From NCBI GenBank assembly GCA_000004985.1, contig GG738854.1: DNA of 64,000 bases; one strand, 5' to 3'. A program made the position numbers and the translations under genes. A model generated the notes under the pieces. The model was not told where the DNA came from and did no database searches. It saw nothing but the letters and a program-made list of their open reading frames with translations. The DNA comes from Naegleria gruberi. Taxonomy: Eukaryota. Of this stretch, positions 44,465 through 64,000 are shown piece after piece (within the stretch, counting starts at the first letter, position 1; each line of letters opens with the position of its first letter).

Positions 44465-44581
44465 TCTTGATCGCAGATTGGAGAAAAATCATCTCCGATA
44501 GGAACATTGGAGATTTTATTTGTTGTCATTCATCACAATACAACATCACCAACTGTTGATCAATTTTAAAATCAAATAAAA

Positions 44582-44753
44582 ATGTCTGACTCATCAACTA
44601 GTAATGATAATAGTAATAATAATAAATTAGAAATTGAATTTAAACAAGCACAAGACTTTATTCAAAATGCACCAGCAGAAAAAGAACCATCCAATGAACA
44701 AAAATTACAATTTTATGCTTTTTATAAACAAGCAACACAAGGACAAGTTAGTG
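44582..44753 (+). CDS. Acyl-CoA-binding protein (ACBP) domain, exon 1
   Basis: ATG at 44582. Translation ...KLEIEFKQAQDFIQNAPAEKEPSNEQKLQFYAFYKQATQGQVS matches ACBP helices 1-2 including the YKQAT motif. Exon ends in phase 1 at 44753, just before GTATGT at 44754. Confidence 0.8.
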
Positions 44754-44902
44754 GTATGTTATTATTATATTGTATTCTTGTAGTATTAATATTAATAATA
44801 ATAATTAAAATTTTATTCATTGATCATGATTATCATCAACTGTCATCACACACATATTAAAATATATTATTTAAAATATATTATTAAAATGATGATAAAA
44901 AG

Positions 44903-45037
44903 GAAAGAGACCAGGTGCATTTGATATTATTAATAGAGCAAAATATGATGCTTGGAAAAAACTTGGTTCTCTAACTAAAGAACAAGCAATGAAATCATAT
45001 ATTACTACTCTTGAACAATCTTCACCTAATTGGAGAA
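44903..45037 (+). CDS. ACBP domain, exon 2 (after 149-nt AT-rich intron 44754-44902)
   Basis: Acceptor AG at 44901-44902 restores the frame. Junction codon G, then KRPGAFDIINRAKYDAWKKLGSLTKEQAMKSYITTLEQ, i.e. the ACBP KxKWDAW-type helix 3-4 region. If the gene is stand-alone, this frame runs on to a TAA at 45115-45117. I favour a donor at 45038 (see next feature). Confidence 0.65.
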
Positions 45038-45101
45038 GTTATTTTACTACAAATAATACAAATACAAATAATAACAATTCAATTACAATTAATCCCTACA
45101 G

Positions 45102-46015
45102 TGGACCGTGGTGGTAATGATAATAATAATAATTCTAATAATACAACATCAACAACAACAACAATTGGTATTATAAATAATGTAAATGATGAAATCTTTA
45201 AAAAAGATTTATTACGTGGTAAAGTAATAATTGTAACAGGAGGAGGTAGTGGTATATGTTATGGTATAACACAATATTTACAATTATATGGAGCACATAC
45301 AGCTATAATATCACGTACATTTGATAAATTAGAAAAGGCTTCAAAAGAAATTATGAAAATAGCCAATAATAATACAATATGTTTACCTGTTTCAGCTGAT
45401 GTTAGAGATTATAAAGCATTATCTAATGCATTTGATAAAGTATTGGAAAGATTTGGTAGAATTGATGTATTAATTAATGGAAGTGCTGGTAATTTTCTAT
45501 GTCCTGCTTCACATTTAACACCAGGTGGATTTAAAACTGTGATGGAAATTGATACATTTGGAACATTTAATGCCTCTAAATTAGCCTATGATAAATATAT
45601 GAAATTGAATGGTGGTGGTAATATTATAAATCTATCCATGACATTACATAATACTGCAACTATAATGCAAGTACATGCAGGATGTGCTAAATCTGCCATT
45701 GATACAATGACTAAACATTTAGCAGTTGAATGGGGATTAGATCAAGTACGTGTTAATTCAATTCAAATTGGTCCTATTGAAGGTACTGAAGGATTTTCAA
45801 GATTACTTCCACAAGATGAATTGAAAAGATATAAGGAAATGATACCACTTCAAAGATTTGGTCTACCAATTGATATTGCTAGAATGGTACTATTTTTAAT
45901 ATCAGATGCTGCCTCTTATGTTACTGGTGCTATTATACCTGTTGAAGGTGCTTCACAATTTACTACAAGTAATATTCATGGTTATCCAAATGCTTTGAAA
46001 ATGTCTAAATTGTAA
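45102..46015 (+). CDS. Short-chain dehydrogenase/reductase; peroxisomal 2,4-dienoyl-CoA reductase (DECR2)-like with C-terminal PTS1 -SKL. No ATG of its own; modelled as the 3' exon of the ACBP gene.
   Basis: TGGGSGIG-type Rossmann motif (VIIVTGGGSGICYGI). The long stretch RIDVLINGSAGNFLCPASHLTPGGFKTVMEIDTFGTFNASK...QVHAGCAKSAIDTMTKHLAVEWG...VNSIQIGPIEGTEG matches human DECR2 as I recall it. Ends ...ALKMSKL* (SKL = peroxisomal targeting signal 1). The track's start at 45011 is TTG, and no in-frame ATG precedes the domain. A strong acceptor (aatccctacag) at 45101 is in frame with a GT at 45038 in ACBP exon 2. This gives a 64-nt intron (45038-45101) and the junction codon a|tg. Confidence 0.8.
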
Positions 46016-46188
46016 ATTATTATTAAATAAATTATATAAATTATATGATTATCATTAAATATATAAATTATAATCATGATGTTTGGTAACATGAATAAAT
46101 TGAATTTTTGAAAAAAAAATAACAACACTTCATCACTACTTAAGATTTTCATCATCAAACATTTCATCAACATTATATTTCTATCGGA

Positions 46189-47078
46189 NNNNNNNNNNNN
46201 NNNNNNNNNNNNNNNNNNNNNNNNNNNNNNNNNNNNNNNNNNNNNNNNNNNNNNNNNNNNNNNNNNNNNNNNNNNNNNNNNNNNNNNNNNNNNNNNNNNN
46301 NNNNNNNNNNNNNNNNNNNNNNNNNNNNNNNNNNNNNNNNNNNNNNNNNNNNNNNNNNNNNNNNNNNNNNNNNNNNNNNNNNNNNNNNNNNNNNNNNNNN
46401 NNNNNNNNNNNNNNNNNNNNNNNNNNNNNNNNNNNNNNNNNNNNNNNNNNNNNNNNNNNNNNNNNNNNNNNNNNNNNNNNNNNNNNNNNNNNNNNNNNNN
46501 NNNNNNNNNNNNNNNNNNNNNNNNNNNNNNNNNNNNNNNNNNNNNNNNNNNNNNNNNNNNNNNNNNNNNNNNNNNNNNNNNNNNNNNNNNNNNNNNNNNN
46601 NNNNNNNNNNNNNNNNNNNNNNNNNNNNNNNNNNNNNNNNNNNNNNNNNNNNNNNNNNNNNNNNNNNNNNNNNNNNNNNNNNNNNNNNNNNNNNNNNNNN
46701 NNNNNNNNNNNNNNNNNNNNNNNNNNNNNNNNNNNNNNNNNNNNNNNNNNNNNNNNNNNNNNNNNNNNNNNNNNNNNNNNNNNNNNNNNNNNNNNNNNNN
46801 NNNNNNNNNNNNNNNNNNNNNNNNNNNNNNNNNNNNNNNNNNNNNNNNNNNNNNNNNNNNNNNNNNNNNNNNNNNNNNNNNNNNNNNNNNNNNNNNNNNN
46901 NNNNNNNNNNNNNNNNNNNNNNNNNNNNNNNNNNNNNNNNNNNNNNNNNNNNNNNNNNNNNNNNNNNNNNNNNNNNNNNNNNNNNNNNNNNNNNNNNNNN
47001 NNNNNNNNNNNNNNNNNNNNNNNNNNNNNNNNNNNNNNNNNNNNNNNNNNNNNNNNNNNNNNNNNNNNNNNNNNNNNN
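46189..47078. other. Run of N (gap)
   Basis: n from 46189 to 47078. The 370-aa all-X ORF on the - strand is an artefact of this gap. Confidence 0.99.
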
Positions 47079-47240
47079 TGGAAATATGAAACACAGAAAA
47101 AACTTGCTAAAAAACCAGCTCTTCCACTTTTATCTTATCAAACTGGAAAGAAAATTGAATGTACAAGATATGGAAATAATTCAATTTTTATTTCTTATGA
47201 AAATGAAAATTATATTGAAAAGATTGATATGAAAATTTAA
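47079..47240 (+). CDS. 3' terminal fragment of an unidentified protein-coding gene emerging from the gap
   Basis: Open frame from the gap edge: WKYETQKKLAKKPALPLLSYQTGKKIECTRYGNNSIFISYENENYIEKIDMKI*, TAA at 47238-47240. Codon usage is like neighbouring genes. It is convergent with the kinase gene 25 bp away. Confidence 0.35.
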   Translation, partial: WKYETQKKLAKKPALPLLSYQTGKKIECTRYGNNSIFISYENENYIEKIDMKI

Positions 47241-47265
47241 TACATTAATATTATTTATTATTTTT

Positions 47266-49479
47266 TTATACAATTTCATCATATTTCTTATTCATCCATG
47301 GATGTTTTAATGCTTGTCGTACATCCAATCTATCTAGAGGATCAATTTGTAAACATTGTCTTATAAAATCTACAAATTCTTCATCTTGACAATTATCTAA
47401 TTTTTCTCGAATATCTTGATTATAATCTGGTATCAATAATTCCTCATAGACATTATCATTTGGTCCAATTTGACCAACTCCTGATGGTGGAATTGTTTTA
47501 CCTGTATCTTTATCTACATATCTAAATAATACATATTCAGTTCTTCCATTAATTTTAACCTTTTTGAAAAAGTCTTTAACAAATCTTCCTCTTTGTAATT
47601 GATGTAATTTGAATGGTCCACATAAAGATAATATCTTGGCTAACATTGTCTGTATCGAATGATTGTAAAACAATACTTTGCCTGTAAACAATTCAGCTAA
47701 AATACAACCAATAGACCAAATATCAATCTTTTCATCATAATCACTTCCAATGACAACTTCAGGTGCTCTATATGTTCTTGATTGAGCATATAATGGTAAA
47801 TTATCCCATTTGAAACATGATGAACCAAAATCAATAATCTTAACTTGACATCTACTATAGGATTTGATTAATATATTTTCAGGTTTCAAATCACAATGAA
47901 TCAAATTAAGTGAATGAACAAATTGTAATGCAGTTAATACTATTTGATGATAATATCATGATTGAATTATTAGATGTTAGATGATGACCAATGAAAAACA
48001 ACTTACATTGTTGAGTAACTTTTTGAAGTCTTGGAAGATTAAAATACAATTCATCACCACTATCTCTATTGTAAACATAAAATTCATACAAGTTATCTCT
48101 TAACAATTCACAAACAATGAACAGATGTTCCTTATAATAGAAAAAGTCATGTAACTTGATAACATGGAAAGCATCTGGATCACCCATACTATTAATAAAT
48201 CTTAGTAATTTGATTTCATCTAAACTTTGATCAAAGAAATCCTTATCATTCTTAATAATCTTAATGCAAACGTTTTGATTGGTTCTTAAATCCAAACATT
48301 GAATTGCTCTGCTAAAAGTTGCACTTCCTAGATATTCAACAACTTGATATCTTTCAGCAATAATTGAATCAACTTCAATTTTGAATTCATTTGTTTCTTC
48401 GAATCCAGTTTTAAATGTTTCTCTTATAATTGGAAGATAAATAGTTTCATATTCAACTGGTGGTCTCCATTTTGTTCTTCTATCTACAACTTCTGGTGCT
48501 TCTTCTTCAATATAAGATGGAACACAATTTTGTAAAACATCTGTTTGAGAAAAATCAGTTAATCTTGAATATCCTTCATCATCACTATCACTTGCATAAT
48601 CATCATCCTTGGCATCTTTATCTGGTTTTTCCTTCTTTGTTTCTGCTGATTTTGGTTTTTCTTTAGATTCCTTAGGGTATTTATGAGCTTCAACTTGTTG
48701 TTCAAGTTCTCTCAAATCATTTTCAACATTCTTTTCAAATGTTTCATATAAATCCTCCGAAGTGAAAGGATTTGATAGTTCTACTGGTTCATCACCACTT
48801 TCATACATGTGAGCAAATTCTTGTAATTCTTTCATCAATGAGGCACTATCTGGTCTTTCATATTCATCTTCCTCAAAAGATTGTTTTGAAGTTCTAGACT
48901 GTCCTGTAAGAACTCTCTTTGCACTATTTGTTGGAGTAATTCTATGATTGTAGTGTTTTGTATCTGGTACATGATGTTGATGGTTGTAGAAATCGGAAAC
49001 TACACTTTGTACAATATCATTAACAATTTCGCATATATCATTGTATTCAGATTCAGAAACAATATTATTTACGAGGGAATATGATTTTAAAGAGTGTTGA
49101 GGAGAAGTTTGAATAACCTCTGTTGGTTCTGCTGATGTTTCCATTGTTTTAACTGTTCAATAAAATTCCGTTAATGTATTTTCAATAACTATTAGGATCA
49201 TCAACAACACTTACTACTTGATTTTAATTCTTCCATCAATTTTTCAGCTGTTTGATTTAATTTGTTCTCCCTAAGGAAGTTCAAAAAGATACCTAACATT
49301 TCTTGTTCATCATTCAACTTCTTTTCATCTAAATCATATTGTTTTAGGAATGAACTATTTGAATCTTGTGTTGTATTTAAAATATCGTCCTCTTCATAGT
49401 CTTCATATTCAGAGTCTGAATCATCTGCATTATAAGGCTCTAATTGTTGTACCTCATTAAGTGCGCTGTTGGAATACAT
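47266..49479 (-). CDS. DYRK-family-like CMGC protein kinase with acidic LisH-like N-terminal exon. Three exons: 49479-49215, 49152-48007, 47939-47266.
   Basis: Kinase motifs: VAIK-like CIKIIK, HCDLKPENILI, IIDFGSSCF, activation loop LYAQSRTYRAPEVVIG (the DYRK/HIPK Y-x-QSR-x-YRAPE pattern), C-terminal ...DFIRQCLQIDPLDRLDVRQALKHPWM. Intron 2 is 47940-48006 (67 nt), with GTAAGT on the - strand. This removes the junk tail (CKLFFIGHH...) and joins ...RLQKVTQQ to LLTALQFVHSLNLIHCDLKPEN. Intron 1 is 49153-49214 (62 nt), GTAAGT...ttattgaacag, and joins the 'separate' 92-aa ORF (49201-49479) in frame to the kinase ATG at 49144. That exon 1 carries a LisH-like motif: LGIFLNFLRENKLNQTAEKLMEEL. Confidence 0.75.
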
Positions 49480-49521
49480 TTTTTTTGATAAAATTATTTA
49501 GCAATATTTTTGTAGACTGAG

Positions 49522-49555
49522 AATGGCGCCAAATTATTTACATTGGCGCCAAAAT
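49522..49555. promoter_or_regulatory. Two palindromic E2F-type sites (TTTGGCGCCAA[A]) 45-75 bp upstream of the kinase gene's first ATG
   Basis: gaaTGGCGCCAAAtt at 49522-49535 and caTTGGCGCCAAAAtg at 49542-49555. Both contain the E2F consensus TTTSGCGC on one strand; the second is a perfect 10-bp palindrome TTGGCGCCAA. They are GC-only cores in an otherwise AT-rich spacer. Confidence 0.45.
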
Positions 49556-49867
49556 GTTATCTTTTGTTTTATAGTCTTACTCAATAAAATAAATTGGACT
49601 CTAAAAATACAAATTATGAGCTAATTGAACAAATCAGTCTTTCTTTGTTAGCCTTACTCAAACTACATATTGCCTCGACCGTAGTAATATCTCTTGGAAT
49701 TTTATAAAAAGAAACGCATACAGTTTGTCGTTGAATTGAGTAAACAACATGGCAAAAACACCAGAATTTAAAATCCTTAGAGATCTACTATTATGTCTAA
49801 TATTTAAAGATAAAGGCCTTTTGCTTGGAGCGCGTTCTAATTTTTCGTGTAACATAACAAACAACAA

Positions 49868-49938
49868 AGGGAGATAGTTCAGTGGTAGAACATGGGATTG
49901 TGGTTCCTAAGATCAGGGTTCGATTCCCTGTCTTCCTA
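49868..49938 (+). tRNA. tRNA-His (anticodon GTG), 71 nt, no intron
   Basis: Manual cloverleaf: acceptor AGGGAGA/TCTTCCT (one G-U); U8 A9; D arm GTTC-AGTGGTA-GAAC; anticodon stem TGGGA/TCCTA; loop TTGTGGT (U33, GUG at 34-36, G37); variable loop AGAT; T arm CAGGG-TTCGATT-CCCTG; discriminator A. CCA is not encoded. T5 run follows at 49943-49947. Confidence 0.85.
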
Positions 49939-49942
49939 CTCA

Positions 49943-49947
49943 TTTTT
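49943..49947 (+). terminator. RNA polymerase III terminator T-run downstream of tRNA-His
   Basis: ctcaTTTTTatttt, 5 nt after the tRNA 3' end. Confidence 0.5.
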
Positions 49948-50022
49948 ATTTTAGATTTTTCAACAATTTTATTTCAGAAATGCAACTTCAATATTTGTTG
50001 ATCTAATAATATTACAGAAAAA

Positions 50023-52106
50023 ATGTCACAACTATTAGAAAACCTCAAAGATTTATTTCCCTCCATTGACATTGAAGTAATAGAATCAGTTATTGATCAA
50101 GTTGATAATGATGAAGAGGCTGCCATTGAATTACTAGTACAAATTAATGAAGATGATGAAGATCTTGATGAAATTAACAATGTTCCGAACAATACTTTTA
50201 ATGACAAAACTAATGATGATATCAATAATGATGATGATTTATTAGAACAAGAAACTTTTGATGATCATGAATTTTCCAATCAAGTATCATCATCGTCTAC
50301 AAAAAACAAGCCTTCCTCCTCTACTACTACTACTACTTCCACTTCTAAAAGTAGTAGTAGTAAAAAATTATATCAAATACTTGATGAAGAAGGAATATTA
50401 AATGAAATTAATAATACAATGAATCAAGTTTTAAATATATTACAAATTAATAATAATAATAGTAATTTTAAATTAGAAATGATATTAAAAAACTATAAAT
50501 GGAATGTTGAAAATATTATTAGAGATTATGGTGATATTGGATTGGATGGTATTTTAAAAAAAATTGGTTTATTAAATAATTTAAATACTACTATAAATAG
50601 TAATAATAATAATAATAATAATATTACAACAACAACAATAACAACAATATGTGAATCATGTTATGAAGATAATATAGAATTAATTAAAAATATAAATTGT
50701 GAACATTCATTATGTGAATCATGTTGGAGAAATTATATAGAATCATCAATTTTACAAAATAATGGAACAAGTATTGAAAGTATTAAATGTCCATCCTATG
50801 AATGTAATTGTCTATTATTAGATGAATTTATTTTATCATTTATAACAAGTAAATATGAACATTTTCTATTAAAAAGTAAAATTAATTCATTCATGACAAA
50901 TTCACATCGAATGAAATGGTGTTCAAATAATTGTAAATTTGCAATTAAAAAGGAATGTGATGAAAATTTATATTATTGTAAATGTAAATGTGATAGAGAA
51001 TTTTGTTTTCATTGTGATCAAGATCCACATTATCCAGGTATGTTTATTTTTATTTTATTTTAATATATTTAAACTATTTAAACTATTTAAAATATTATTG
51101 TAAACTATTTAACATTACAATAACAACAATACAATAACATTACAATAACATTACAAAAATATAACAAAACATAATAATAGCAACATGTGAAATGATGAAA
51201 AGATTTATATCATTTACAAAAGAACATGAATCTAATTTAGAATATATTAAATCAACATGTCAACAATGTCCATCATGTAAAGTTTATGTTCATCGTATTA
51301 GTGGATGTGATAGTATGGTATGTGGATATTGTGGTACTAGATTTTGTTATATTTGTGGACAATCATCACATGGATATCAATCTATTTGTGTTGGACAATC
51401 TACTACTCTATTAGGAAGTAAAAAAGTTAGTGAATTTGATTTATATGTAGAAGAAGCACATGCTAGATTTAATTATAAATATAAATTATATACTAATTGG
51501 TTACAATCTCCAAATACACATTCTAATTTAATTTTTTATAATTTGGAAAATTCAGCACTTTTTGAATTTGGATATTTAAAAAATGATTTTAAAATATTTT
51601 ATTCTGCATTAAATTTAATAATTAGAACTAGAAGATTATTAAGATCATTATGTGTATTTGCATTTGTTTCATTTGGATTTGATAAATTATTAATGGAAAG
51701 TTTATTAAAAAATATTAAAAATACAAAAAAAAATAAGAAAAATAATAATACAAATATGGAACAAGATTTAACTTTATTAAAAACATTTGGATATTTATTT
51801 GATATGAATTATGAAAGATTGGAAAAATTTGTTGATCAATTACTTTCCATTTTAAGAAATTTTACACAAACACCTCAAGAAGAATTAGAAGAACAAGAAG
51901 AATTAGAAAAATTAAATTCTACTAATAATGGAAATATTAAAAATTATAGTAACATGTTTGAATTTGGAAATTCTTTATTTACACAAGAAAAACATTTAAA
52001 ATTTCATAATTTAAATTCACAAATTAAAAATCAAATGGAATTAATTGTAAAACAAACTGAAAATATTATTGATATGATTAAATCAATGGAAATGAAAACT
52101 ATTTAA
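50023..52106 (+). CDS. RBR (RING-IBR-RING) E3 ubiquitin ligase, Ariadne-like, with N-terminal CUE-like motif. Two exons: 50023-51037 and 51181-52106.
   Basis: Exon 1: N-terminal LKDLFPSIDIEVIESVIDQV...AAIELLV (CUE-like F-P / LL pattern); an Ariadne UBA-like region (ILKNYKWNVENIIRDYGD); RING1 (CESCYED...CEHSLCESCW...C); IBR (WCSNNCKFAIK...CKCKCDREFCFHCDQDPHYP). GTATGT donor at 51038 (phase 1), acceptor ...ataatag at 51180. Exon 2 follows with ATCEMMKRF... then the RING2/Rcat domain (CPSCKVYVHRISGCDSMVCGYCGTRFCYICGQ) and an Ariadne-domain-like helical C-terminus. TAA at 52104-52106. Confidence 0.85.
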
Positions 52107-52155
52107 ATAAAATTTATTTTTTATATTTAATATTTATTACCATTTTTGGAAATAT

Positions 52156-53361
52156 TTAAATATTCTTTTTATTTTCTAAAATATCATTATTAATATCAAT
52201 GGTATTATTATTATTTATATTTTGATTATTTTGATTAATATTTTGATTTGTTTGTCTAATATCATCAAAATCAAGTTTTTTAAATAATTTTCTAAAAATA
52301 ATTTTACAAATTAAATAAAACCAAAATAAATGTAAAATTAATAAAATAATTAATAAAATATTTAAAATCCAATATGGACTTATACATACTCCATTTATAC
52401 ATATACCATAATTAGATAAATCTATAAATGAATTAATATTTGAAACATTTCTAATTAAATAATATCTAGTTAAATGATCCCATCCATATTTATTAAAAAT
52501 AGATTTAAAAATTAAATATGGAAAATAAATTAATCTTTTAAATAAATAACTAATTGCAAATAAAATAAATAATAAATTTGTAATTTTTTCATTTAAATTT
52601 AATAATTTAAATACTTTTGCAGAATAAAAGAAAATATCAACTAAATCATGTAATAATAAAATTAAAGTTCCAATTCTATGATAAAATGTTAAAATACAAC
52701 CAATAATTAAAAATATTGTAACAATGTGATGAATTACAAATTGATGAAAATCTTTCATTTTCTCATCTATAAATAGTAATGTAAATAATGCTTGAATATA
52801 GAAACCACATCCTATTAATAGATATTCTCTCATATATGGATATTCAAATCCTGTATGTTCATTTGGATATCCAATATTACAATAATCAGAATTAAATAAC
52901 CATGGTGTTTCCTTTAATATTAAAATTCCAAATATAGATGATAATATATAAAAAATACAAAACCAAATATTTTCTAATATACTACTATATTTAGTACTTT
53001 TAGAATATTTTTTAATTAATTTTAAAAATATTGGTTCAATTACAAATCTTCTCATACAAAATAATAAAATTGCAATTATTAATACATTTATAGTATCTTG
53101 CATGAACCAATTATTTTTCCTATTTTCAATTGGTTCATCACTTCCAAATATCATTGGAAATAAATGTGGTGGACCCATTGTTGTTCTTGTTGAATTTGGA
53201 AATATTCTATATTGAGAATAAATATGTGTATTATTAGTACCCATTAATCCAAACCATTTATCTATAACATGATAAAATGTGTTTGAAGTAGTACATGTTG
53301 TAGTAGTTGAAGTAGTAGTAGAAATGTTATCATTGTTTTTGTTTTTTTTAAAGATGTTCAT
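52156..53361 (-). CDS. Ceramide synthase (TLC / Lag1p-longevity-assurance family), multi-pass membrane protein
   Basis: Lag1p motif with the catalytic His pair and downstream HD..D..aK: HQFVIHHIVTIFLIIGCILTFYHRIGTLILLLHDLVDIFFYSAKVF. Many hydrophobic segments. N-terminal N-x-T sequon (FPNST). Asn/Gln-rich tails. Single continuous ORF, ATG at 53359-53361. Confidence 0.85.
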   Translation of the reverse strand: MNIFKKNKNNDNISTTTSTTTTCTTSNTFYHVIDKWFGLMGTNNTHIYSQYRIFPNSTRTTMGPPHLFPMIFGSDEPIENRKNNWFMQDTINVLIIAILLFCMRRFVIEPIFLKLIKKYSKSTKYSSILENIWFCIFYILSSIFGILILKETPWLFNSDYCNIGYPNEHTGFEYPYMREYLLIGCGFYIQALFTLLFIDEKMKDFHQFVIHHIVTIFLIIGCILTFYHRIGTLILLLHDLVDIFFYSAKVFKLLNLNEKITNLLFILFAISYLFKRLIYFPYLIFKSIFNKYGWDHLTRYYLIRNVSNINSFIDLSNYGICINGVCISPYWILNILLIILLILHLFWFYLICKIIFRKLFKKLDFDDIRQTNQNINQNNQNINNNNTIDINNDILENKKNI

Positions 53362-53664
53362 TGTTGGTAGTTGAACTGTGTGCTAATGGTTGCGTGTGAA
53401 AATAATAGTGCAGCGTTGAAAAAGTTTACAATAAAATTGACCGTTGAAATTGGATTGGTGCATTGGATGTCCTGAGGACTTGAACCAAATCAACAGATTC
53501 CAAGTACTGAACATGTGTGTTTTAAATTGCAACATGCATGCAACAACATCATCCAACAACACAATCAATGTGGACCCAGTAAACAACTCCCTCTTGACAA
53601 AATGAGCGGGAACTTTTATTGTTTATTTCATGTAATATTTTAACAAACAATCAATCTTGATTTG

Positions 53665-54393
53665 TCATTGACTCATAATTGAGTCCTGTAATCCATCTAA
53701 TGTTAATTTCCATTCATTTCGTACACCTTCTGTTTCAGTGGGTCCCAACAAGTCAAGCATTGTCTGATAGCATTTGGCAAGGCAAGAGTTGTGGAAAATA
53801 CTAAGAGATTGGTCTCCACCTACTCTATATTTGGCATAGCTAAAAAGTGATATTGTAGTTTCCAAAGCTCCTTTTACCAATTCTAAATTCTTTTCGAAAG
53901 AAGACACAACAAATAGACAACATTCCACAAACTCTGACATTGGAAACTGAATTTGGGTTAGATTTGTTTCATCAAAACAAATTGTCAACTTGAAATTAGC
54001 GTTAAATTCCTTTACAAGTGTGAATGTCTTTTCAAACATATTAAATGCTTGAAACATTAGATTGTTAAAATGATCTTCGCTGCACAAGTCAGTTGGTGTT
54101 GGGTAAAGAGCATGAGTATCAGAAATTAAAGTGTAGAGAAGACATGCTGTATGAATGAGCTCTCGATAGTTGGTAGTGGTGGTTGGTGTGTTTTGTTCGA
54201 ATTGTTGTTGGAAATACAGATTGCAACGGAGTGAAGCTAAATGAAACAAGTGTATAATTTTTTCTTTGTGTTTATTCCTTTCTTGTATCAAGGACAATAC
54301 ACAATAAACATCAAGGCTTGGCGGTGAATTGGACAATAATTCTTCATCATCATCAGCTTCAAAGTAAAGCAGCTTAGTTCCATTGTGAGACAT
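53665..54393 (-). CDS. Hypothetical protein (242 aa), no family recognised
   Basis: Continuous ORF from ATG (54391-54393) with coding-like composition. N-terminal acidic stretch, Thr run. No motif I can name. Confidence 0.5.
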   Translation of the reverse strand: MSHNGTKLLYFEADDDEELLSNSPPSLDVYCVLSLIQERNKHKEKIIHLFHLASLRCNLYFQQQFEQNTPTTTTNYRELIHTACLLYTLISDTHALYPTPTDLCSEDHFNNLMFQAFNMFEKTFTLVKEFNANFKLTICFDETNLTQIQFPMSEFVECCLFVVSSFEKNLELVKGALETTISLFSYAKYRVGGDQSLSIFHNSCLAKCYQTMLDLLGPTETEGVRNEWKLTLDGLQDSIMSQ

Positions 54394-55528
54394 TTTTTTA
54401 AGAAAAGTTTTTTAACTTGCTCTAAATCGAATGGTTTGCAACCCCTTAAACTATTGAGGTTGAATTGTCCCTTATTGTTTTTTTAATAAGAAAACAATAG
54501 AGAGGAATCTGTATAATCCGAAATTGAACTATTCTCGAAAATTATCAGCAGTTGAGATTTAAAAAGCATCCATTAATCTTTCTTTTTGACATCAGATATA
54601 ATTAAACCCTTAATAGACGAACATTTCATAAAGATTAAAATCATAAAGTATATCACTCATAAATTGAAGTAAGTATTCGCTTTCTATTCCAATACTTTGA
54701 CAGTATTTCCCTCCAAATGTTGCTCATGAACACACTCAAATTTAACTGAAATTACTGAATAATTGGAAGAATCAATAAACAGTCTATATCTCTTACGTTG
54801 TTGATTCAGACCAGATAAGACGAGGATCCATTCTCAAATTAGGATGTTTATAATATTAGTTCCTTCCTTTCTTAGTGTCCAAGAACTCTATTTCAAATCA
54901 TAATGATTGAATTGGAAAAGTACTCTTTAAGAACTATCAGTTTTTAGTAGTGAACTTTTGAGTGTGATATATTTGGGCTACTGGAAAGTGATTCAACTGT
55001 GAAGTGCTTTTCAATTAATGGTATAAAAGAATGTGAAGAGTGATTTGTTACAATAAAAAGATCTTTGTAAAATAAAGAGATGATCATCAATAAAACTAGT
55101 GAGAGAACTTGAGCATTATTGACAAGGGTTGAAAGACATTCAATAAGAGCTACAGTTTACTTTAAGACTTTACTTACAAATTTAACAAATAAATAGGTTA
55201 CTATATTTGTACTTTAGGAATTCGCAATTTTCGATATCCATCTTATATACTTCCCATATTCATGTAATTTGAACTCAGGCAAGGACCCCGTATAAGAGCA
55301 CTAAATAGTATCCTTAAACGTTGAAATAATCCATCACTACTAGTCAACTTGACTTGTTTTTTAAATGCTTCGTACTTGGGCTTTTTAAAATCTCCTTAAA
55401 AAAAAGAAACAACATTTGGCTACTTACAAGCCTTTCAAAATTTCATTAGACATCAAACTACTTCTACGGAGGAGGAAAGAATTAATTGAAAATAGGATTC
55501 ATTGTAGTTTTAATTAAATTTAAATTGA

Positions 55529-56440
55529 ATGACTTTACCAAATCATCATCTTCAGCATCAGAAGGTTTATCCAATTGAAATTACAAATGAAACAACACCA
55601 TCAGCATCAGATTCTACTACTACTAGTAATGAAATATCATCAAAAGCAATTGATAAAGTCAATAGAAAGGCTTTCGTAATTGATGATTTTGATAAGAGTA
55701 TGGAATTGAAAAATGTAGATGAAAGTTTGGATGATTTTAGTTGGGTTCCAAAATCACCTTTAACCTCAAATTCTACTTATCGACCAAAATCAGCAAGGAA
55801 TAGATATGATCAGGCCTTTAGAATTGAGAATGATCTTCAAGTCTCTCCGAATAGTAATCAACAAGCCTCATACTACAAACAAGCTGCCTTCAATCATATT
55901 CTTAATAATTCAACCAATGTAAATAATAATAATGAAACAACTCAAAAGAATGATGAAAAGAGTGTTGCTAAAACTAAACCAAAATCTGCACCTCCTCATA
56001 TTAAGAGAAATACATCTGATAATAATTCTGAAAGGAAGAATCCATTTGCTATCATTAAGGGATTGTTGAATATGTGTAAAACCAAGAACCATGTCGTTGA
56101 ACATGATGAAACAAAAGAAAATATCAAACCATCATCAGCTAAAAGTAAACATTCAGAAACATGTCAGAATATTACAATTGAAAAAACTCAAGTGGTTGTC
56201 TTTGATAATAGAGCAAATAGAGAAGAACTTCCACCATCACCTCAAATGAATAGAAGAGCTAAATGTGGAGGATATGGAGATGATGATTCAAATAGAGATC
56301 AACCAATTATTGTTCCTCTATATTATCATGTAATGAATGCAGGTAATAATCCTCAAAGTAGTGAAGCTCCTAAATCCAATAATCCAAACACTAATGTTCT
56401 TGACTTGTCTGATTCTGTTTCAGATATTCAAGAATTTTAA
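55529..56440 (+). CDS. Hypothetical low-complexity, probably disordered Ser/Thr/Asn/Lys-rich protein (303 aa)
   Basis: ATG at 55529, TAA at 56438-56440. Composition is typical of dictyostelid low-complexity proteins. No recognisable domain. Confidence 0.5.
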   Translation: MTLPNHHLQHQKVYPIEITNETTPSASDSTTTSNEISSKAIDKVNRKAFVIDDFDKSMELKNVDESLDDFSWVPKSPLTSNSTYRPKSARNRYDQAFRIENDLQVSPNSNQQASYYKQAAFNHILNNSTNVNNNNETTQKNDEKSVAKTKPKSAPPHIKRNTSDNNSERKNPFAIIKGLLNMCKTKNHVVEHDETKENIKPSSAKSKHSETCQNITIEKTQVVVFDNRANREELPPSPQMNRRAKCGGYGDDDSNRDQPIIVPLYYHVMNAGNNPQSSEAPKSNNPNTNVLDLSDSVSDIQEF

Positions 56441-56518
56441 ATTGTAAAAACTCTAAGAAATAATTATCAAATATAATGTCCATATTAAATGTATGGTCAA
56501 TAAACCTAGGCATCCTTT

Positions 56519-57442
56519 TTATTGAGTATTAGAATCAGTTGGGATTGTTGCCTTTAAAATTCCACAATCAATCATTAATTTTATCAATTGAGTTGTATAA
56601 TGTGATAATGTATAAGTATTATGTGGAAGTGAATAATCAGCATAATCAATAGAAATATTATATAGATCACTAATTTTAATTTTAGCTGTATTTTGTTGAT
56701 AGGCAGATGATGGTGTTGGTGTATTTGAATCAAAATCCACAAATAAAGTCATAAAATCCTTCATTAACTCTTCAAATAAATAACAATAAGAACAAGGTGA
56801 ATATTCAACATCAATTAAAATTCCTCTCTTTTTAGTTCCATATGAATAAATTCCAACTCTAACAGTAAAATCTCCAAATTTTAAAATTTCACCTTCAATA
56901 GTTACTTTAACAAATTCTGTATAACGTTTTAACTTTTCACAAATCATATCTTTAAAATTTGTACTTGTCACTAATATTTGTTTATCCAATAAAAAGAAAA
57001 TCTTATCAATAGATTTAAGTTCTAATGAAGGAGGAACAAGATTAAAAACTTCTTTTGGTTGATTAAAATCAAAAGATTCTTGTAGTAAAGCTCCTCTAAA
57101 TTTTAAAGTATTCCAAGTTTGATTTAAATTTTGAATATGTTCCTTCTCCACTTCATCTTGTGTATATTGTACACTATGTAATTTTGTATGAGAAGTAAAA
57201 ATTGGAGGTTCTTGTGAATCTGCAGGTGCTGTATTATTAGGATTATATTCTTTAATTTCTATATAAAATTTAGGAGCATTAGGATCTAAAGTTGTTTGTG
57301 ATATTGTTGATAGTGAAGAAATTTTCTCAGCATTATAAAGCCTAATAAGAGAAAGTACTATTTTTCGGTATTCGTTCTGTACTAACTTTTCATCATTGCT
57401 ATATTCTTTAAGTTCCTTGATAAATAATTTATGATAACCCAT
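56519..57442 (-). CDS. med20: Mediator complex subunit 20 (MED20/TRFP)-like
   Basis: C-terminal block ILKFGDFTVRVGIYSYGTKKRGILIDVEYSPCSY closely parallels human MED20 [34 protein letters not shown], as I recall it. It is longer than the human protein because of Asn/Thr-rich insertions. ATG at 57440-57442. Confidence 0.6.
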   Translation of the reverse strand: MGYHKLFIKELKEYSNDEKLVQNEYRKIVLSLIRLYNAEKISSLSTISQTTLDPNAPKFYIEIKEYNPNNTAPADSQEPPIFTSHTKLHSVQYTQDEVEKEHIQNLNQTWNTLKFRGALLQESFDFNQPKEVFNLVPPSLELKSIDKIFFLLDKQILVTSTNFKDMICEKLKRYTEFVKVTIEGEILKFGDFTVRVGIYSYGTKKRGILIDVEYSPCSYCYLFEELMKDFMTLFVDFDSNTPTPSSAYQQNTAKIKISDLYNISIDYADYSLPHNTYTLSHYTTQLIKLMIDCGILKATIPTDSNTQ

Positions 57443-57608
57443 TTATATTGTTTTTGATGATGATCGTTCTATTATGTACAAAAATTAATGTATGATGAAT
57501 ACGAAGGCTTTTTGATGATGACTTTGTGAAGCCTTGTTTGATACAAAGACGTGTATTCAAATTTTTTAAAAATAAATTAAATTGCATTGGAATTTTCACC
57601 AACAAAAA

Positions 57609-57867
57609 ATGTCTGCAACAACAACAAAGAATAATAATACCTACAAATGCCAATCGATGGATGAATTTATATCTAAAACCGAAGCACTTTTTAATCAATT
57701 TCCAAATGATACACGATATGTTATGAAATTTAGTAATAAGAAAGGAAAAATGAGCTTAAAAACCACTAATGACACCTATGTTGTAAAATATTGTACAGAT
57801 CAAGCTTCCGATTTGCAACATCTTGAGAAATTAAACAATTTTGTAATGACAGTGACGACATCAAAGA
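57609..57867 (+). CDS. srp9: Signal recognition particle 9 kDa subunit (SRP9). A short 3' micro-exon (57926-57951) is possible.
   Basis: MSATTTKNNNTYKCQSMDEFISKTEALFNQFPNDTRYVMKFSNKKGKMSLKTTNDTYVVKYCTDQASDLQHLEKLNNFVM matches SRP9 (human ...WEEFSRAAEKLY..DP.K.R.V.KY....G.L..KVTDD..CL.YKTDQAQDVKKIEKF...LM). The real ATG is at 57609; the track start at 57582 is TTG. GTAAGT at 57868. Either read-through to TAA 57888-57890 (...SKLLENY*), or a 58-nt intron to acceptor AG 57925 gives ...TTSK-N-EELKAKK*. Confidence 0.75.
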
Positions 57868-58175
57868 GTAAGTTATTGGAAAATTATTGATGGATTATTA
57901 ATATGAATTTTATTCTCATCATCAGACGAGGAATTAAAAGCAAAGAAATAAATAAATTTACTAATTTAATCAGCATGAATAACACAACATCTATGCATAT
58001 TACAACAATAACATCATCAATAATATGAGTAAAGAAATGAATTTCATCATCACACAATTTTGTCTAGATAAGAAAAAGGCTTGATTTGGTGAAAAAAGGC
58101 TTTAAAAAAATTATCATCATTTAACAAGAGAATTTTCTTCATCATCAACAACAACATTATACTATTATTGATAAT

Positions 58176-59534
58176 ATGAATCGATTATTCTCTGGAGGAG
58201 GAAGACATTTTTCTCGTGCTGTTATTTACAGTGCAACATTATCATTTGTTGGAATTAACTTTTTCACCTTTTCTCATTATATTAAACATTCCTATTGGGA
58301 TAATTTACATACTTCTCCTGCACCATCAAGTGGACAATATATGCAACCACCTGAAGAAATTACAAATTCAAGCAAGGAAGAAAAATTATTCTATACATTA
58401 AAATCTAATCAATCATCATCATCTAATGGAACGAAAAAATTAATCATCTTCCTTCCTGATATTGTTGAAACAAGAGAAGTTTTCCAAGATTTGGAATATC
58501 AAATGTTACATAATCCACAAGTTAACGATCAACAAATTTATTCATTAAGATATGATAGATTTGGATATGGATATAGTAATGTTGTAAAAGGACCAAGACA
58601 TTTACATAATATGAGTATTGAATTACATACACTTATTGAACATGTTTTAAAGAATAATATTGAATTGAATGAAAATGAAAAACTTGAAATTTCACTTGTA
58701 GGTCATGGATTTGGAGCAATGTTAGCAAGAATGTATTTGTATAAATTTTCAAATACTTTTGAAAGTGAATTTAAAAATGTCAAAATTGCAAAGAATATAT
58801 TAATTTCACCACTTCATGAAAGATTTATTCAATTTTCACCATTCTATGTGGATTATCTTGTTGACTGGAAATCAAGAGGTTTTATTAATAGACTTTTATC
58901 ATTCCACGGTTTTATGGAATGGTTATTTAAATTTAATCCAAGATTTTCTTTAAAGGATGAAGTTATTTATCCATTTATGGAAACTATTGCAGATGATGTA
59001 CCAACAACAACTTGGAATGTTAAATATAATGGAACTGAAGGATCAACAGATTATGATGATGATCATTTAATTTCTAAAGATGAAGCTAAGAAGAGATTGG
59101 AATTTCATATGAGAAATGATAATTTATGGAAAACTGTTAGAAATGAAACAAATTTATTCAAGAGATCATGTGTACAATTGAATGATTGTCGTAAGAGTGC
59201 AGAGCCACACTATAAACAACAAGAACAATCAGCATCAGCAGCAACAGAACAACAACAACCAGAAGAAGCTAACACTACACAACCAATTAATACTTCCAAT
59301 ATTGATGTTCTAGTTGTTGATGTCGATCATTCAAGAGATGACGAACTTGGCAGAAAGGGAGTTAAAGTTTTCTTTGATAAGAATAGTGAATTTTCACAAG
59401 TTGATTATCTCAACGATCTTGTTGAAGGATATTCTAATAAGAGTAAGGTTATTTCACTCAATAATTATAATCACTACTCTGTATTGAATACACCTGCTCT
59501 TGCACAAACTGTAATTAACTTCCTCAAACAATAA
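58176..59534 (+). CDS. Alpha/beta-hydrolase-fold protein with N-terminal hydrophobic anchor. The nucleophile-elbow Ser is replaced by Gly (GHGFG); likely a pseudo-hydrolase.
   Basis: Typical a/b-hydrolase order: LIIFLPD..., RYDRFGYGYS (D.RG.G.S-like), then elbow LVGHGFGAMLA at 58695-58727 where GHSxG is expected. N-terminal AVIYSATLSFVGINFFTF hydrophobic segment. ATG at 58176, TAA at 59535-59537. Confidence 0.75.
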   Translation: MNRLFSGGGRHFSRAVIYSATLSFVGINFFTFSHYIKHSYWDNLHTSPAPSSGQYMQPPEEITNSSKEEKLFYTLKSNQSSSSNGTKKLIIFLPDIVETREVFQDLEYQMLHNPQVNDQQIYSLRYDRFGYGYSNVVKGPRHLHNMSIELHTLIEHVLKNNIELNENEKLEISLVGHGFGAMLARMYLYKFSNTFESEFKNVKIAKNILISPLHERFIQFSPFYVDYLVDWKSRGFINRLLSFHGFMEWLFKFNPRFSLKDEVIYPFMETIADDVPTTTWNVKYNGTEGSTDYDDDHLISKDEAKKRLEFHMRNDNLWKTVRNETNLFKRSCVQLNDCRKSAEPHYKQQEQSASAATEQQQPEEANTTQPINTSNIDVLVVDVDHSRDDELGRKGVKVFFDKNSEFSQVDYLNDLVEGYSNKSKVISLNNYNHYSVLNTPALAQTVINFLKQ

Positions 59535-60060
59535 ATAATGGAATATTTTACAACAGTACAAAGTATTCATTGTACCTTCATCTTCACTTATTCAGATCCT
59601 ATAGTGAGATGGTGGATATCAAAGTATCTGTTTTCCCAGAATAATAATGTTAAGGATGATAATTTATCTATATTTATTATCCTTTCAATAAGTCAAAAAG
59701 TACAATTCCGTAAATCTTTGCATTGTCTTTTGTTAAACCTTAATGTTTTTTGGAAAAATGCAACTACTATGAAAGATATGAAATATTACTTCAAATCCAC
59801 AGATAATGGATGGATCTTGTGTAACCTACCAATCACAAGCCTGTCTCCCAAAAAAATTATCAATGAGTTGGGCCAATTAGACAATTAGCATAATAGCTCT
59901 TTCTTCTTCTGAACTCTCTTGTCTTATTATCAGTGAAACTCTAAAGGCAACTCTAATTTTCTATAGAAAAATAGTTTAAAAAAATGGATCCACATGGCTC
60001 TTTTGTTTCATCCGAAACTTCCTTAACATCCTTCATCATCACCATTTAAAGATAAATGGT

Positions 60061-60261
60061 TCATTTGTTAAGATTTATATTACTCAATTTGTTTGTAATA
60101 TGTTGTAAAACATAACTGTCATCCTTTTCAAGACGTTTCACACTTGTCTTCTTTCTTGTTTTGTGTTGCTTGTCAATTCCATTCTTTTTTCTCTCCTCCT
60201 TTTCTCTTTCCATCTTTGCCATTAATTCCCTATATGCTGGACAAGTATCATAATACTCCAT
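60061..60261 (-). CDS. Small basic K/R/E-rich hypothetical protein (about 66 aa from the ATG)
   Basis: MEYYDTCPAYRELMAKMEREKEERKKNGIDKQHKTRKKTSVKRLEKDD... The track start at 60273 is TTG; the first ATG is at 60259-60261. No family recognised. The local sequence is less AT-rich than neighbouring genes. Confidence 0.35.
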   Translation of the reverse strand: MEYYDTCPAYRELMAKMEREKEERKKNGIDKQHKTRKKTSVKRLEKDDSYVLQHITNKLSNINLNK

Positions 60262-61715
60262 TTTCCTGCTCAATCATAGTGGGCAATATTACTTAGTAAG
60301 CATTCAAAAATTTTGGAATGTCAAAGAGAGGTGAGAGGTTTAATTTTCAAACTCCTTCCAGAGGAACCAATTTTTCCTAACAAGTTAATTGTTGTGATTT
60401 GTAATGAGCTTGTTTATCATTTTCATATTGAAGTCAGTTTTAAAAGAGATGTTATTGTAAGAGTTTATAATGTACTCAATATCCATAACGTGACGGACTT
60501 ACAACGAATTATATCTAATTTTTACTTGGTTTCAAAACCATTCTGCCAAGATTTTGAAACATATATTGATGATTGTTTTTTCAAATTTCGGAACCATCTC
60601 AGAGAGTGTTTCACCATTATTCAAGTTGATTAGTTAGCTTCCTATTATTAAGATAAATATTGAATTTTATAGATTATTCATAATAGAAATATTGAAGTAA
60701 TTGTCAAGTTCTATGAAATTACAGATTCGAATACACAATACATTTTAAAATCTCATTCTTTCCCACAACAATTGAATATCATATTTGTTGTATCAAAATA
60801 AATATTACCCACTTACCTACTCAACTACAGTTCACTACAACTATTTCTAATGAGGACACAGATCCGCAGTAAGCGCACTGTCACAACAATCATCGCCACA
60901 TGAAATTTCCTTTTGTTGCTTCTTTAAATTACAATGCAATACAAAAGAAACTTCATACAATGTATTCGAAACAATGTCTAGACAAGCTTTTTTTTACTCT
61001 GTTTCAGTTTTTAATTAATTAAATAGTCAATTCCTAAATGTGTTCACAAAAGCTAAACTTGTCGAAACAGTGCCGGTGAATTTCGCTAACGTGCATGACA
61101 AGTAACACATTCAGACAATTTAATGAAGTTGTTTCATTTTGTGATTTAATCCAATTGATTAAAGCTTGCAGTTTAATATGAACCATCCACAGACCAAAAA
61201 ACCGTATTACTGCCAATACGTCAAATTTCAAATGGTCTCTTCATTTGAAAATACTTAAAAGTAATGTTGCCGTGATATGAAATCTTGTTATGGCTTATTT
61301 TGCTTTCGTACAGCCAGGACTTTAAGGGAAGTTAAGAATACTAGTGATATGCAATTAAAAGCTGTTGGTCGGTTGTTGCTGTTGGAGCCTTGACACATTT
61401 CGCACCGGTTTCAAGTTGGTATTGATTCGTATAAAAAAAACTATTCGAAACAGTTCTGCACCGAATCACTCTCTCGGTAGAAACACTCAGTCACCACGTT
61501 GAAAAAGCGAAATCTTTGGTAACATTATTGTTCATCATTGAAATGCCAACTACATGTCCTTATCATTATCTTACTCATCTAAAAGTTTGTAATCTTTACT
61601 GTTTTTATTAAATAATTAACAATCAATTACACAAATACCAACTATCCATTCTCAAAAATAGTGCAATCAAGATGTTTGTGTTATTCGAAAGGCTTACCCA
61701 AATGACTCTGAAATT

Positions 61716-62875
61716 ATGGAACAACAATACTTTTTTCTCTTGAAAGAAATATATGAGAGAAATATTCCACAACGATCCCAAATGAATTCCATTCTGAGAG
61801 ATAAATTCCTTCAACATGCTCCAAATTCAATGTTGGCACTCGTTGAATCAGTGAAGGAAATGAATGAATGTGGTATTAATGTTAAAGATGTTCCAAAGAG
61901 ATCTGTATTGGCTTGTGAAATATTAGATATTACCAATGTTAATACCCTCATTTCTAATACCAAAGAAGTGGCTTCAAATCTTCATCATGTAATAACAATA
62001 CCAACAACAAATACAAATTGTTGTTGTAGTAATAGTGCAGATGAGAAATGTGCATGTAATGGTCATCATACAACAACAACAATATCAAATATGCCCAATA
62101 ATCATTGCACATCATCTAACTATCAAAATGGTAGTTGTAATCTATCGTCGCCTACTTCTCCTTTTGGAGCATGTTTTACATCAAAGTTTACTTTACAAAA
62201 GAAGAGAATTCCAAAAAGATCATCACCTCCAACCATACAATCCTCATCAACTGCTACATGTTCCTCAACTAACATGCCATTCACAAGCTACTATAACAGT
62301 GGGGCTGTGTATTTTGATCAACCAACAACTCAAATTTCAGAACAAAATCTGAAGAGAAAGCATTCGAATGTGAATGTCATGCAACATGAAACTTTGATTC
62401 CAAGAACATGCAAAGTAAGAACATTGAATCAACCAACACAACAAGTATCACCACCTCCACCTCCACAACCACAACAATATATATGTATCAGTTTCATGCA
62501 ATTGGTTCACCTCAATCACCTTCAACATGTTCCTCTTCTAATACTAACAACACATTTGAATATAATAATCAGCAGCAGCAACAACAGCACGATTCAAAGA
62601 AGAGAAAGATTGTTGATACATCATTCCACCTCTCCACCCAATATTCCACAACTGCACACAGTTCTTCCTATGTTTTAGTACCAAATTCGTCACCTCCTCC
62701 ACCTGTATATTATCCTTCTCCTCCAAATACTCCTAATACTCCACCTCCTCCTCCTACCAACTCATTCTCATCATTCAACACTTGTTTATCATTACCCTCA
62801 CCAACTCTATCACCATGTAAATTACCTCCAATAAGAGATTTACTCAACTCTCTGCAGTATCCTTCCTCAATATAA
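61716..62875 (+). CDS. Ser/Thr/Pro/Gln-rich low-complexity protein with a KKRK basic cluster (possible NLS). The reading frame changes around 62410-62575 (intron or frameshift).
   Basis: ATG at 61716. The frame-0 ORF runs to 62678. A frame-2 ORF (62408-62875) overlaps it, carries QQQQQQHDSKKRKIVD and a PPPP-rich tail, and ends in TAA. A GTAAGA donor at 62415 and acceptor ...tataataatcag at 62572 (158 nt) would join the two frames exactly: ...IPRTCK|QQQQQHDSKKRK.... Confidence 0.45.
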
Positions 62876-63016
62876 AGTCCCTCAAAATTTCTTTTTAAAA
62901 TAAATTTTAATTCTTCTTCTTATTAAATCGGAGTAATTTCCTATTAGGAATGAATGTTGTGATGATATTAGCAAAGGTCAAAACAAGGCTTTGAAATTTT
63001 AATTTTTATAAAAAAA

Positions 63017-64000
63017 ATGGGACAATCACAAGGTTCCCTCCCACCAGAGTTTGAACAATCACTCGGAAGAGTGTTACATTTTGATGATCAATTGTTGATG
63101 GAAACATGTCCTAATGTTGAACAACAATTTGATATTTTACATGATATTGTACTCTCGTTATATGATCATTCGCAATTTAAACATTTTATACAAACACGAA
63201 TAGATGCTCTAGTATTAAAACATTTAGGAAGAATTTTGTGTTTTCTTGTTAATATTCACAAAGAATTAATGGAACAAGAACAACAAATTTTATACAAGAA
63301 ACAAACAAGTTTAACTTTAGAAATTGAAAAAGTTATTATATGTATATATGAAATGGCAGTACATTTTCTATCAAATCCATTCTTGTATCAATCATTAGCA
63401 CTTAATTTATTACAAGGAGAAAAGAATTCTCAAGAAAAGGAACAAGTGTATAGTTATTATATCGATCCTGGATTTTATTTCCTTTCTAAAGCAAATATTA
63501 TAGAACAAGTTTTAAGATTTTTGAAGGAATTAACAATTGGAGGACCAAGTAGACACTTGTTTTTAGAACCACAAACACCAACAACTGATGTAAATGGACA
63601 ACAAGATCAAAAAATTACAGAACAACGAAAACAAGATTTTATTGGATCTATTATGGAAATTCAACAACAATTTGCTTTAAAATCTAGAGGGTGAGTATTT
63701 TACAATGTAATTGAATTCTCATCAAATATAGATTTGAATTAATGTACACAATTTTGGAATTTTATGTTCATGATAAGGCAAAGAAGCAAAAGAAACACAT
63801 AACAAAACAAGTACTTGCTAAAATTATATTAACTGTCTTGGATATTTCTAAAAATATACTTGATAATGAAAATTCTACTGTTGCAAAAGCCTTTATTTCT
63901 ATTTTTGGACTTGATGCGGATAGGGACATTGCTATACGGAAGAGATTTTGTCATAATTTATTATTCTTATGTCAAATTACCCAACCAAATATTCAAATAC
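63017..64000 (+). CDS. Hypothetical protein with N-terminal MGxxxS myristoylation-type motif; at least 2 exons, continues beyond window end
   Basis: ATG at 63017, MGQSQGSLPPEF.... Exon 1 ends in phase 2 at 63690 before GTGAGT. The only frame-compatible acceptor is ...tcatcaaatatag at 63731, giving a 41-nt intron. Exon 2 is open from 63732 to the window end (…FELMYTILEFYVHDKAKKQKKHITKQVLAKIILTVLD...). Confidence 0.55.

Follow-up and report, generated by a model that had tools for sequence, protein, structure and literature searches.

We describe here a protein kinase gene on the minus strand of a 64,000-nucleotide (nt) stretch of the Naegleria gruberi genome (assembly GCA_000004985.1, contig GG738854.1), which is called the window throughout. 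We propose, at a probability of about 0.85, that this N. gruberi gene is an orthologue of the DYRKPs, the "plant-type" subgroup of DYRK kinases, and that its N-terminal LisH-type motif and its glycine loop are both inherited traits of that subfamily. An original prediction, made from the letters of the window, had suggested that a DYRK-like kinase gains an N-terminal exon with a LisH-like motif, which would have made it a new combination of domains. The protein is instead an ordinary member of a known subfamily, and the suspected new domain combination is not supported.

Assignment of the kinase to the DYRKP subgroup

The kinase was compared with protein relatives and with the sequences of the PDB by using one query of 380 amino acids (aa) and the same scoring. 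Among the PDB sequences, DYRK2 and DYRK3 ranked highest with 212-214 bits, ahead of PRP4 (182), DYRK1A/B (175), HIPK2 (160) and CLK1 (154). This ranking agrees with the earlier assignment to the DYRK family, and the Pkinase profile, which had been proposed as a check, matched the protein at aa 357-686 (Table 1). The 116 non-Naegleria proteins at the top of the protein search, however, all scored 399-489 bits with the same query, about twice the values of human DYRK2 and DYRK3. High-scoring relatives came from land plants, green algae, ciliates, dinoflagellates, euglenids and the heterolobosean Acrasis. They include the published MpDYRKP of Marchantia (Mp3g19940, P0081 in our set), which scored 408 bits and has a kinase domain 51% identical to that of the Naegleria protein.

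In an alignment of 40 family members, K386, H485, D487, N492, D507, G509, Y521, the QSR.YRAPE stretch and the APE motif are invariant. Y521, the tyrosine of the activation segment, lies within PLYAQSR, and the first Tyr of the YxY motif, two residues before it, is replaced by Pro in the window protein. The corresponding residue is reported to be Cys in plants and Ser in Chlamydomonas (PMC8514375, PMC4782384). DYRKPs are reported to have retained the DYRK-homology (DH) box, and their C-terminal extension has been described as very short (PMC4782384). In the window protein the Pkinase match stops at aa 686 of 694, leaving a tail of 8 residues. Given these scores, the DH box, the single activation-loop tyrosine and this 8-residue tail, we read the protein as a DYRKP.

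The glycine loop had been described as degenerate (LGSATFSRA in place of GxGxFG). In the comparison with the family, G364, A366, F368, S369 and A371 of the loop are invariant across all 40 DYRKP-type sequences. The G-S-A-(A/T)-F-S loop is thus an inherited trait of the DYRKP subfamily and no peculiarity of the Naegleria gene. Judged by its residues, the kinase domain would be catalytically complete.

Gene structure and the N-terminal LisH-like motif

The coding region consists of three exons and two introns (Table 1). After splicing, the coding sequence measures 2085 nt; it encodes 694 aa and a terminal stop codon, and its frame is otherwise open. Removal of intron 1 keeps exon 1 in frame with exon 2 (...KSS-I-KT-M...), and the ATG at 49479 is preceded, 18 nt upstream, by an in-frame TAA (49500-49498). 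The open reading frame (ORF) of 92 aa at 49201-49479 is separated by 56 nt from the kinase ATG at 49144, and its final four residues (SKCC*) are read-through into intron 1. This ORF had been predicted to form the first exon of the kinase gene, joined to the rest by a 62-nt in-frame intron, with a second intron further downstream. Both introns and the 56-nt gap were found where predicted on the minus strand, as were the quoted peptides LGIFLNFLRENKLNQTAEKLMEEL, LGSATFSRA, DFGSS and YAQSRTYRAPE; the canonical in-frame introns and the conservation in relatives bear out the assignment of the exon. We therefore read the ORFs of 92 aa, 412 aa and 212 aa as one gene. A second candidate donor, GTAGTA at 49217 (A|GTAGTAAGT), is also in phase 1, overlaps the GTAAGT at 49214 and would give a product shorter by one Ser. 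We prefer the donor at 49214 because GTAAGT is the donor of each of the three further introns inspected, in the window and in N. fowleri.

The exons are also found in close relatives. The annotated N. fowleri protein FDP41_007097 (700 aa) is 74% identical over 99% of the 694-aa product, and together with the annotated N. lovaniensis protein (702 aa) the values are 98-99% coverage and 73-74% identity, with exon 1 included. In N. fowleri, N. lovaniensis and one metagenomic relative, the part encoded by exon 1 is conserved as well. The N. fowleri locus (L001) has two introns, of which intron 2 interrupts the same codon in the same phase as in the window, and intron 1 (63 nt, GTAAGT, phase 1) is two codons from the window site in a variable stretch. 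In the metagenomic relative (L003), a 42-nt GTAAGT...CAG segment in phase 1 lies within two codons of the intron 1 site, and intron 2 is missing. This segment (700-741, within the gene at 383-2476) is in frame and free of stop codons, and a prokaryotic gene caller read through it, which added the 14-residue KYNSCILVGRYCS to the predicted protein (P0003). The single ORF of 697 aa in this sequence (JGI metagenome 3300002220) had been considered as an intronless relative; we rejected this, as KYNSCILVGRYCS is read-through of an intron and only intron 2 is truly missing.

Between the window and N. fowleri, the LisH segment has a proportion of nonsynonymous differences (pN) of 0.10 with a saturated proportion of synonymous differences (pS), and 84% aa identity, as compared with a pN of 0.40 and 38% aa identity for the acidic leader. 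For exon 1 overall, pN is 0.29 and pS is saturated, and pN is 0.066 for the kinase domain. By these values, the LisH segment is under purifying selection. Furthermore, a metagenome contig (L002; ENA ERZ929261, PRJEB11402, k127_115833) has 99.0% DNA identity to about 47305-49374 over 2076 nt and carries intron 1 as well. The prokaryote-style gene calls on this contig break the kinase gene into three ORFs, and the contig points to an N. gruberi-like strain in the sampled metagenome.

The N-terminal motif had been said to fit the LisH consensus. The curated Pfam cut-offs are 21.6 bits for LisH (PF08513), 30.7 for LisH_TPL and 27 for LisH_PAC1. The motif of the window protein matches LisH in register at 12.6-17.8 bits and LisH_TPL, also in register, at 17.7-22.1 bits, so that the single sequence stays under both cut-offs. 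The family as a whole passes: consensus sequences emitted from the family profiles scored 27.6 and 25.6 bits with LisH and 29.4 and 28.9 bits with LisH_PAC1, all above the cut-off. The motif is therefore LisH-like by family profile and consensus, although the window sequence by itself does not reach the threshold. A lack of any LisH match above threshold had been named as a refutation of the original prediction; this is what the single sequence gives, and the family-level scores overturn it. When the 40 members were scanned singly against Pfam, the recurring families all belonged to the LisH clan (LisH_PAC1 in 9, LisH in 8 and LisH_TPL in 5). When the 40 segments were combined into one profile and the whole set of PDB sequences was searched with it, 13 matches were obtained, of which 12 were to LisH-motif proteins, namely TAF5, SMU1, WDR47 and SPAG16, the last of which we take to be a LisH-motif protein. 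In the three alignments that were printed, the match falls on the N-terminal LisH. AlphaFold2 (AF2) predicted for the window fragment of aa 46-88 two helices (3-26 and 30-42) connected by a turn, with a mean predicted local distance difference test (pLDDT) score of 84.6 and values of 89-96 across the helix-turn-helix. Likewise, the model of the N. fowleri orthologue has helices at 70-96 and 100-120 (pLDDT 83-94), and the equivalent of the acidic leader is below 50.

With a hidden Markov model of the motif, 75 of 90 relatives that seem to be full-length gave a match, nearly always starting within the first 33 residues; MpDYRKP and the window protein are among those matched. The carriers span land plants (including MpDYRKP), green algae, ciliates, dinoflagellates and euglenids, with examples such as MADSVDVVLEFLRKNQFTKAEAALLGEL in plants, MADSVNAILEYLRKHNFSEAENALRSEL in MpDYRKP and MEIFDAISNYLETKGLHRSAYLLRQ in Blepharisma. 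We conclude that the N-terminal motif is LisH-type and ancestral to the DYRKP subgroup, and was not acquired by the Naegleria gene, because members from such a wide range of lineages carry it. Two parts of the original prediction are not supported by this result, that the kinase gains a LisH exon and that no DYRK-type kinase is known with such a motif. On the alignments, nothing is gained in the Naegleria gene, and only the acidic leader of about 57 aa ahead of the motif is Naegleria-specific. The leader is poorly conserved except for LNTTQD (aa 34-39, 49363-49380), which is kept in all four Naegleria-type sequences and may be a short linear motif. In the linker downstream of the motif (aa 115-230, about 48790-49137), the stretches VNDIVQSVVSDFYN, DTKHYNHRITPTNSAKRV, RPDSASLMKELQEFAHMY and EDLYETFEK show strong conservation between Naegleria species, and the N. 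fowleri model predicts helices for them at low to moderate confidence.

LisH is known as a module for dimerisation, stability and localisation (PMC12648486). Conserved N-terminal motifs detected by MEME have been reported in plant DYRKPs, and the Marchantia study states that Pfam finds no domain in the DYRKP N-terminus (PMC8514375). We found no publication naming the N-terminal motif of DYRKPs a LisH, and domain databases with more permissive LisH models may annotate it already. Among the matches listed in a literature search for DYRK and LisH, there were LisH partners such as RanBPM and DCAF1, and no LisH inside a DYRK.

Table 1. Features of the DYRKP-type kinase gene in the window and of its predicted protein.
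Feature	Position	Strand	Basis or remark
Coding region, DYRKP-type kinase, 3 exons and 2 introns, 694 aa	47266..49479	-	stop codon 47266-47268
Exon 1, 265 nt, ends in phase 1, aa 1-88 plus one base	49215..49479	-	translation; conserved in three relatives
Intron 1, 62 nt, GTAAGT...TTATTGAACAG (ends AACAG), phase 1	49153..49214	-	
Exon 2, 1146 nt, mostly low-confidence linker, DH box, kinase N-lobe	48007..49152	-	
Intron 2, 67 nt, GTAAGT...AAATAG, phase 1	47940..48006	-	
Exon 3, 674 nt including stop (TAA), catalytic loop, activation segment, C-lobe	47266..47939	-	
Acidic Asp/Glu/Tyr-rich leader, aa 1-57, Naegleria clade only	49309..49479	-	other DYRKPs begin with the LisH-like motif
LisH-like helix-turn-helix, aa 59-88, QEMLGIFLNFLRENKLNQTAEKLMEELKSS	49216..49305	-	profile matches, AF2, conservation
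DH box DDDYASDSDDEGYSR, aa 271-285	48563..48607	-	family consensus DEWxDDDDxGYxR; D272 and G282 nearly invariant
Protein kinase domain, aa 357-686, interrupted by intron 2	47293..48349	-	Pfam Pkinase, E 2.3e-51, 175 bits
Glycine loop LGSATFSRA, aa 363-371	48305..48331	-	subfamily signature
Activation segment DFGSSCFKWDNLPLYAQSRTYRAPE, aa 507-531, with DYRK autophosphorylation tyrosine Y521	47758..47832	-	alignment columns

Alternative readings and a proposed working of the protein

The N-terminal motif could also be a generic amphipathic helical hairpin instead of a true LisH dimeriser, which would bind a specific partner (in plants, the ANGUSTIFOLIA/SOSEKI network) or regulate the kinase in cis. 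The co-purification of plant DYRKPs with AN and SOK fits such a role, as do the scores of single sequences, including that of the window, under the curated LisH cut-offs and the empty Pfam result of the Marchantia study (PMC8514375). However, every recurrent Pfam match is to the LisH clan, the family consensus exceeds two curated LisH cut-offs, and 12 of the 13 PDB profile matches are to LisH-motif proteins, at their N-terminal ends. Moreover, binding of a partner by a LisH can coexist with dimerisation (PMC12648486). We regard the generic hairpin as unlikely. Much less probable still is that the 92-aa ORF lies outside the kinase mRNA, with the kinase starting at the ATG at 49144, while the ORF 5' of it would be a separate small gene, a uORF or non-coding. 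This ATG is found 8 nt after the acceptor, and a prokaryote-style gene caller gave precisely this 414-aa product (P0004) on the near-identical metagenome contig. An isoform lacking the LisH is also conceivable, because MpDYRKP has five splice variants that all differ N-terminally (PMC8514375). Nevertheless, both introns are canonical, keep the phase and recur at conserved positions, purifying selection acts on the LisH segment, the exon is included in the annotated models of N. fowleri and N. lovaniensis, and the motif heads the protein in most family members. A standalone ORF would, in addition, finish in four residues encoded by the intron.

The altered glycine loop (G-S-A-T-F-S) raises the question of whether the protein is a pseudokinase or a scaffold and no enzyme, since the loop has other residues in place of glycines two and three of GxGxxG. 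Yet the remaining catalytic residues (K386, H485-C-D487, N492, D507-F-G and the APE motif) are all kept, and the identical loop is invariant across a strongly constrained family. Peptides with phosphorylated tyrosine have been reported for the activation loops of both AtDYRKP3 and CrDYRKP (PMC4782384), and loss-of-function phenotypes are known in Marchantia, Chlamydomonas and Toxoplasma. Because the glycine loop and the catalytic residues are invariant family-wide, we consider a pseudokinase highly improbable, and we retain the reading of the locus as a DYRKP orthologue with an inherited LisH-type motif and an inherited loop.

Several points weigh against this assignment. The motif of the window protein scores below the curated Pfam LisH cut-offs, the PDB profile matches are individually marginal (E values of 0.007-0.13), and fold-library searches with the 43-aa model were non-specific and gave no informative match. 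The residue at the first YxY position is Pro, not the Cys of plants or the Ser of Chlamydomonas. The placement among DYRKPs is based on score gaps and signature residues, and the donor at 49214 instead of 49217 and the start at the ATG at 49479 are predictions from the sequence.

If the DYRKP reading is correct, the protein would be composed, in this order, of a disordered acidic leader (aa 1-57), a LisH-type helix-turn-helix (about 59-88), a mostly disordered linker, the DH box (271-285) and the kinase domain (357-686). By analogy with other DYRKs, Y521 would be autophosphorylated once and intramolecularly, after which the protein would act as a Ser/Thr kinase. The LisH could form a four-helix-bundle homodimer as in LIS1, SMU1, DCAF1 and FOP, and the resulting enzyme might be dimeric or docked onto another LisH-bearing partner; the motif possibly also affects stability and localisation. 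The gene structure (by sequence and conservation), the family assignment, the motif throughout the family with its similarity to LisH profiles and the predicted helix-turn-helix are results of the comparisons, whereas splicing in vivo, dimerisation, kinase activity and the cellular role in Naegleria are inferred. It is possible, although we hold it as doubtful, that the N-terminal motif of the whole DYRKP subfamily, including plant DYRKPs, STD1 and the ciliate expansions, is a bona fide and so far unrecognised LisH dimerisation module. It would be missed because single sequences are just under the Pfam threshold. If this were true, DYRKPs would be the sole DYRK lineage with a built-in LisH, either as obligate dimers or docking to LisH/CTLH-type partners, and the LisH-kinase architecture would date to early eukaryotes.

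Genomic context and comparison with known systems

The homology search returned no N. gruberi protein for the kinase locus, and none of the 694-aa, 603-aa and single-exon products was found when looked up as an exact sequence. Because of these results, the gene seems to be unannotated, that is, missing from the N. gruberi protein set of the searched collection. Three other ORFs of the window are exact matches to the N. gruberi proteins NAEGRDRAFT_64534, 64535 and 64536, which identifies the window as N. gruberi NEG-M. Runs of N (1-44464 and 46189-47078) make up 71% of the window, so that real sequence covers 44465-46188 and 47079-64000, about 18.6 kb of 64 kb, with a GC content of 28%. The second run is an assembly gap of 890 nt. 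It begins 188 nt past the stop codon of the kinase gene, and most of the convergent WD40 gene that is seen beside the orthologues in N. fowleri and in the metagenomic relative (L003) probably falls within it. On the other side, the kinase gene is separated by a 543-nt spacer, containing a tRNA-His (GTG) gene at 49868-49939 (+), from a divergent gene that starts at 50023. This neighbour (50023-52103, +) encodes an N-terminal CUE domain and IBR domains over two consecutive ORFs (50023-51060 and 51192-52103), which are probably one intron-split gene for a RING-between-RING type E3 ligase. Farther away, an acyl-CoA-binding protein (ACBP) ORF at 44582-44857 (+) is a partial match, probably with an intron after it, and 45011-46012 (+) is an ORF for a short-chain dehydrogenase/reductase.

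The nearest known system is that of the DYRKPs, comprising MpDYRKP, AtDYRKP-1/2A/2B/3, the Chlamydomonas DYRKP/STD1, the plant-like TgDYRK1 and the ciliate "DyrkP" proteins. They have in common with the window protein the G-S-A-A/T-F-S loop, the KDFFDQSLDEIKLL and HCDLKPENILIKSYSRC signatures, the DH box, the single activation-loop Tyr in place of YxY, the very short C-terminal tail and the N-terminal LisH-like motif. In Naegleria species, an acidic leader of about 57-85 aa precedes the motif, whereas in other DYRKPs the motif lies within about the first 30 residues. The window protein also has a much shorter linker than land-plant DYRKPs (694 aa against about 1000-1190 aa in total), and Pro instead of the reported Cys or Ser two residues before the activation Tyr. 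No DYRKP structure was among the top 60 PDB sequence matches listed. The closest solved structures, those of human DYRK2 and DYRK3 (e.g. 3k2l and 5y86), have the same CMGC/DYRK fold, DH box and activation-loop tyrosine, but they reach half of the DYRKP score and differ in having a canonical GxGxFG loop and YxY, and no LisH. With LIS1/PAC1, TAF5, SMU1, WDR47 and TOPLESS, the window N-terminus shares a helix-turn-helix of about 30 residues with the pattern hydrophobic-x-x-(Y/F/W)-L...(T/S)-A-x-x-L-x-x-E. In those proteins the LisH is usually ahead of CTLH, coiled-coil or WD40 regions, whereas here it is ahead of a disordered linker and a kinase. Unlike in the established LisH proteins, dimerisation is putative in DYRKPs, whose individual sequences are under the curated LisH thresholds.

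DYRKPs are involved in cell morphology in Marchantia (PMC8514375), in reserve accumulation and cell-wall hatching in Chlamydomonas, in nuclear positioning with the ANGUSTIFOLIA and SOSEKI network in Arabidopsis, and in daughter-cell formation in Toxoplasma, whose DYRK1 clusters with the plant proteins. Stentor has eight DYRKP members. Plant studies call DYRKP "plant-specific" (PMC8514375), whereas the kinome classification by Manning and colleagues considers it a basal eukaryotic subfamily that was lost in animals, fungi and Dictyostelium (PMC3218828). The presence of a fully built DYRKP in a heterolobosean speaks for an old eukaryotic lineage, in agreement with the latter and in contradiction to the plant-specific label.

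The new points of this analysis are minor: a gene that seems to be unannotated, and a DYRKP motif read as a LisH, for which we found no precedent in the literature. The gene model is corrected, and a DYRKP kinase that seems to be lacking from the N. gruberi protein set is added to it. The LisH reading plausibly extends to the plant-like DYRK1 of Toxoplasma, and it provides a testable hypothesis, dimerisation or docking onto a LisH partner, for the kinases of Arabidopsis, Marchantia and Chlamydomonas.

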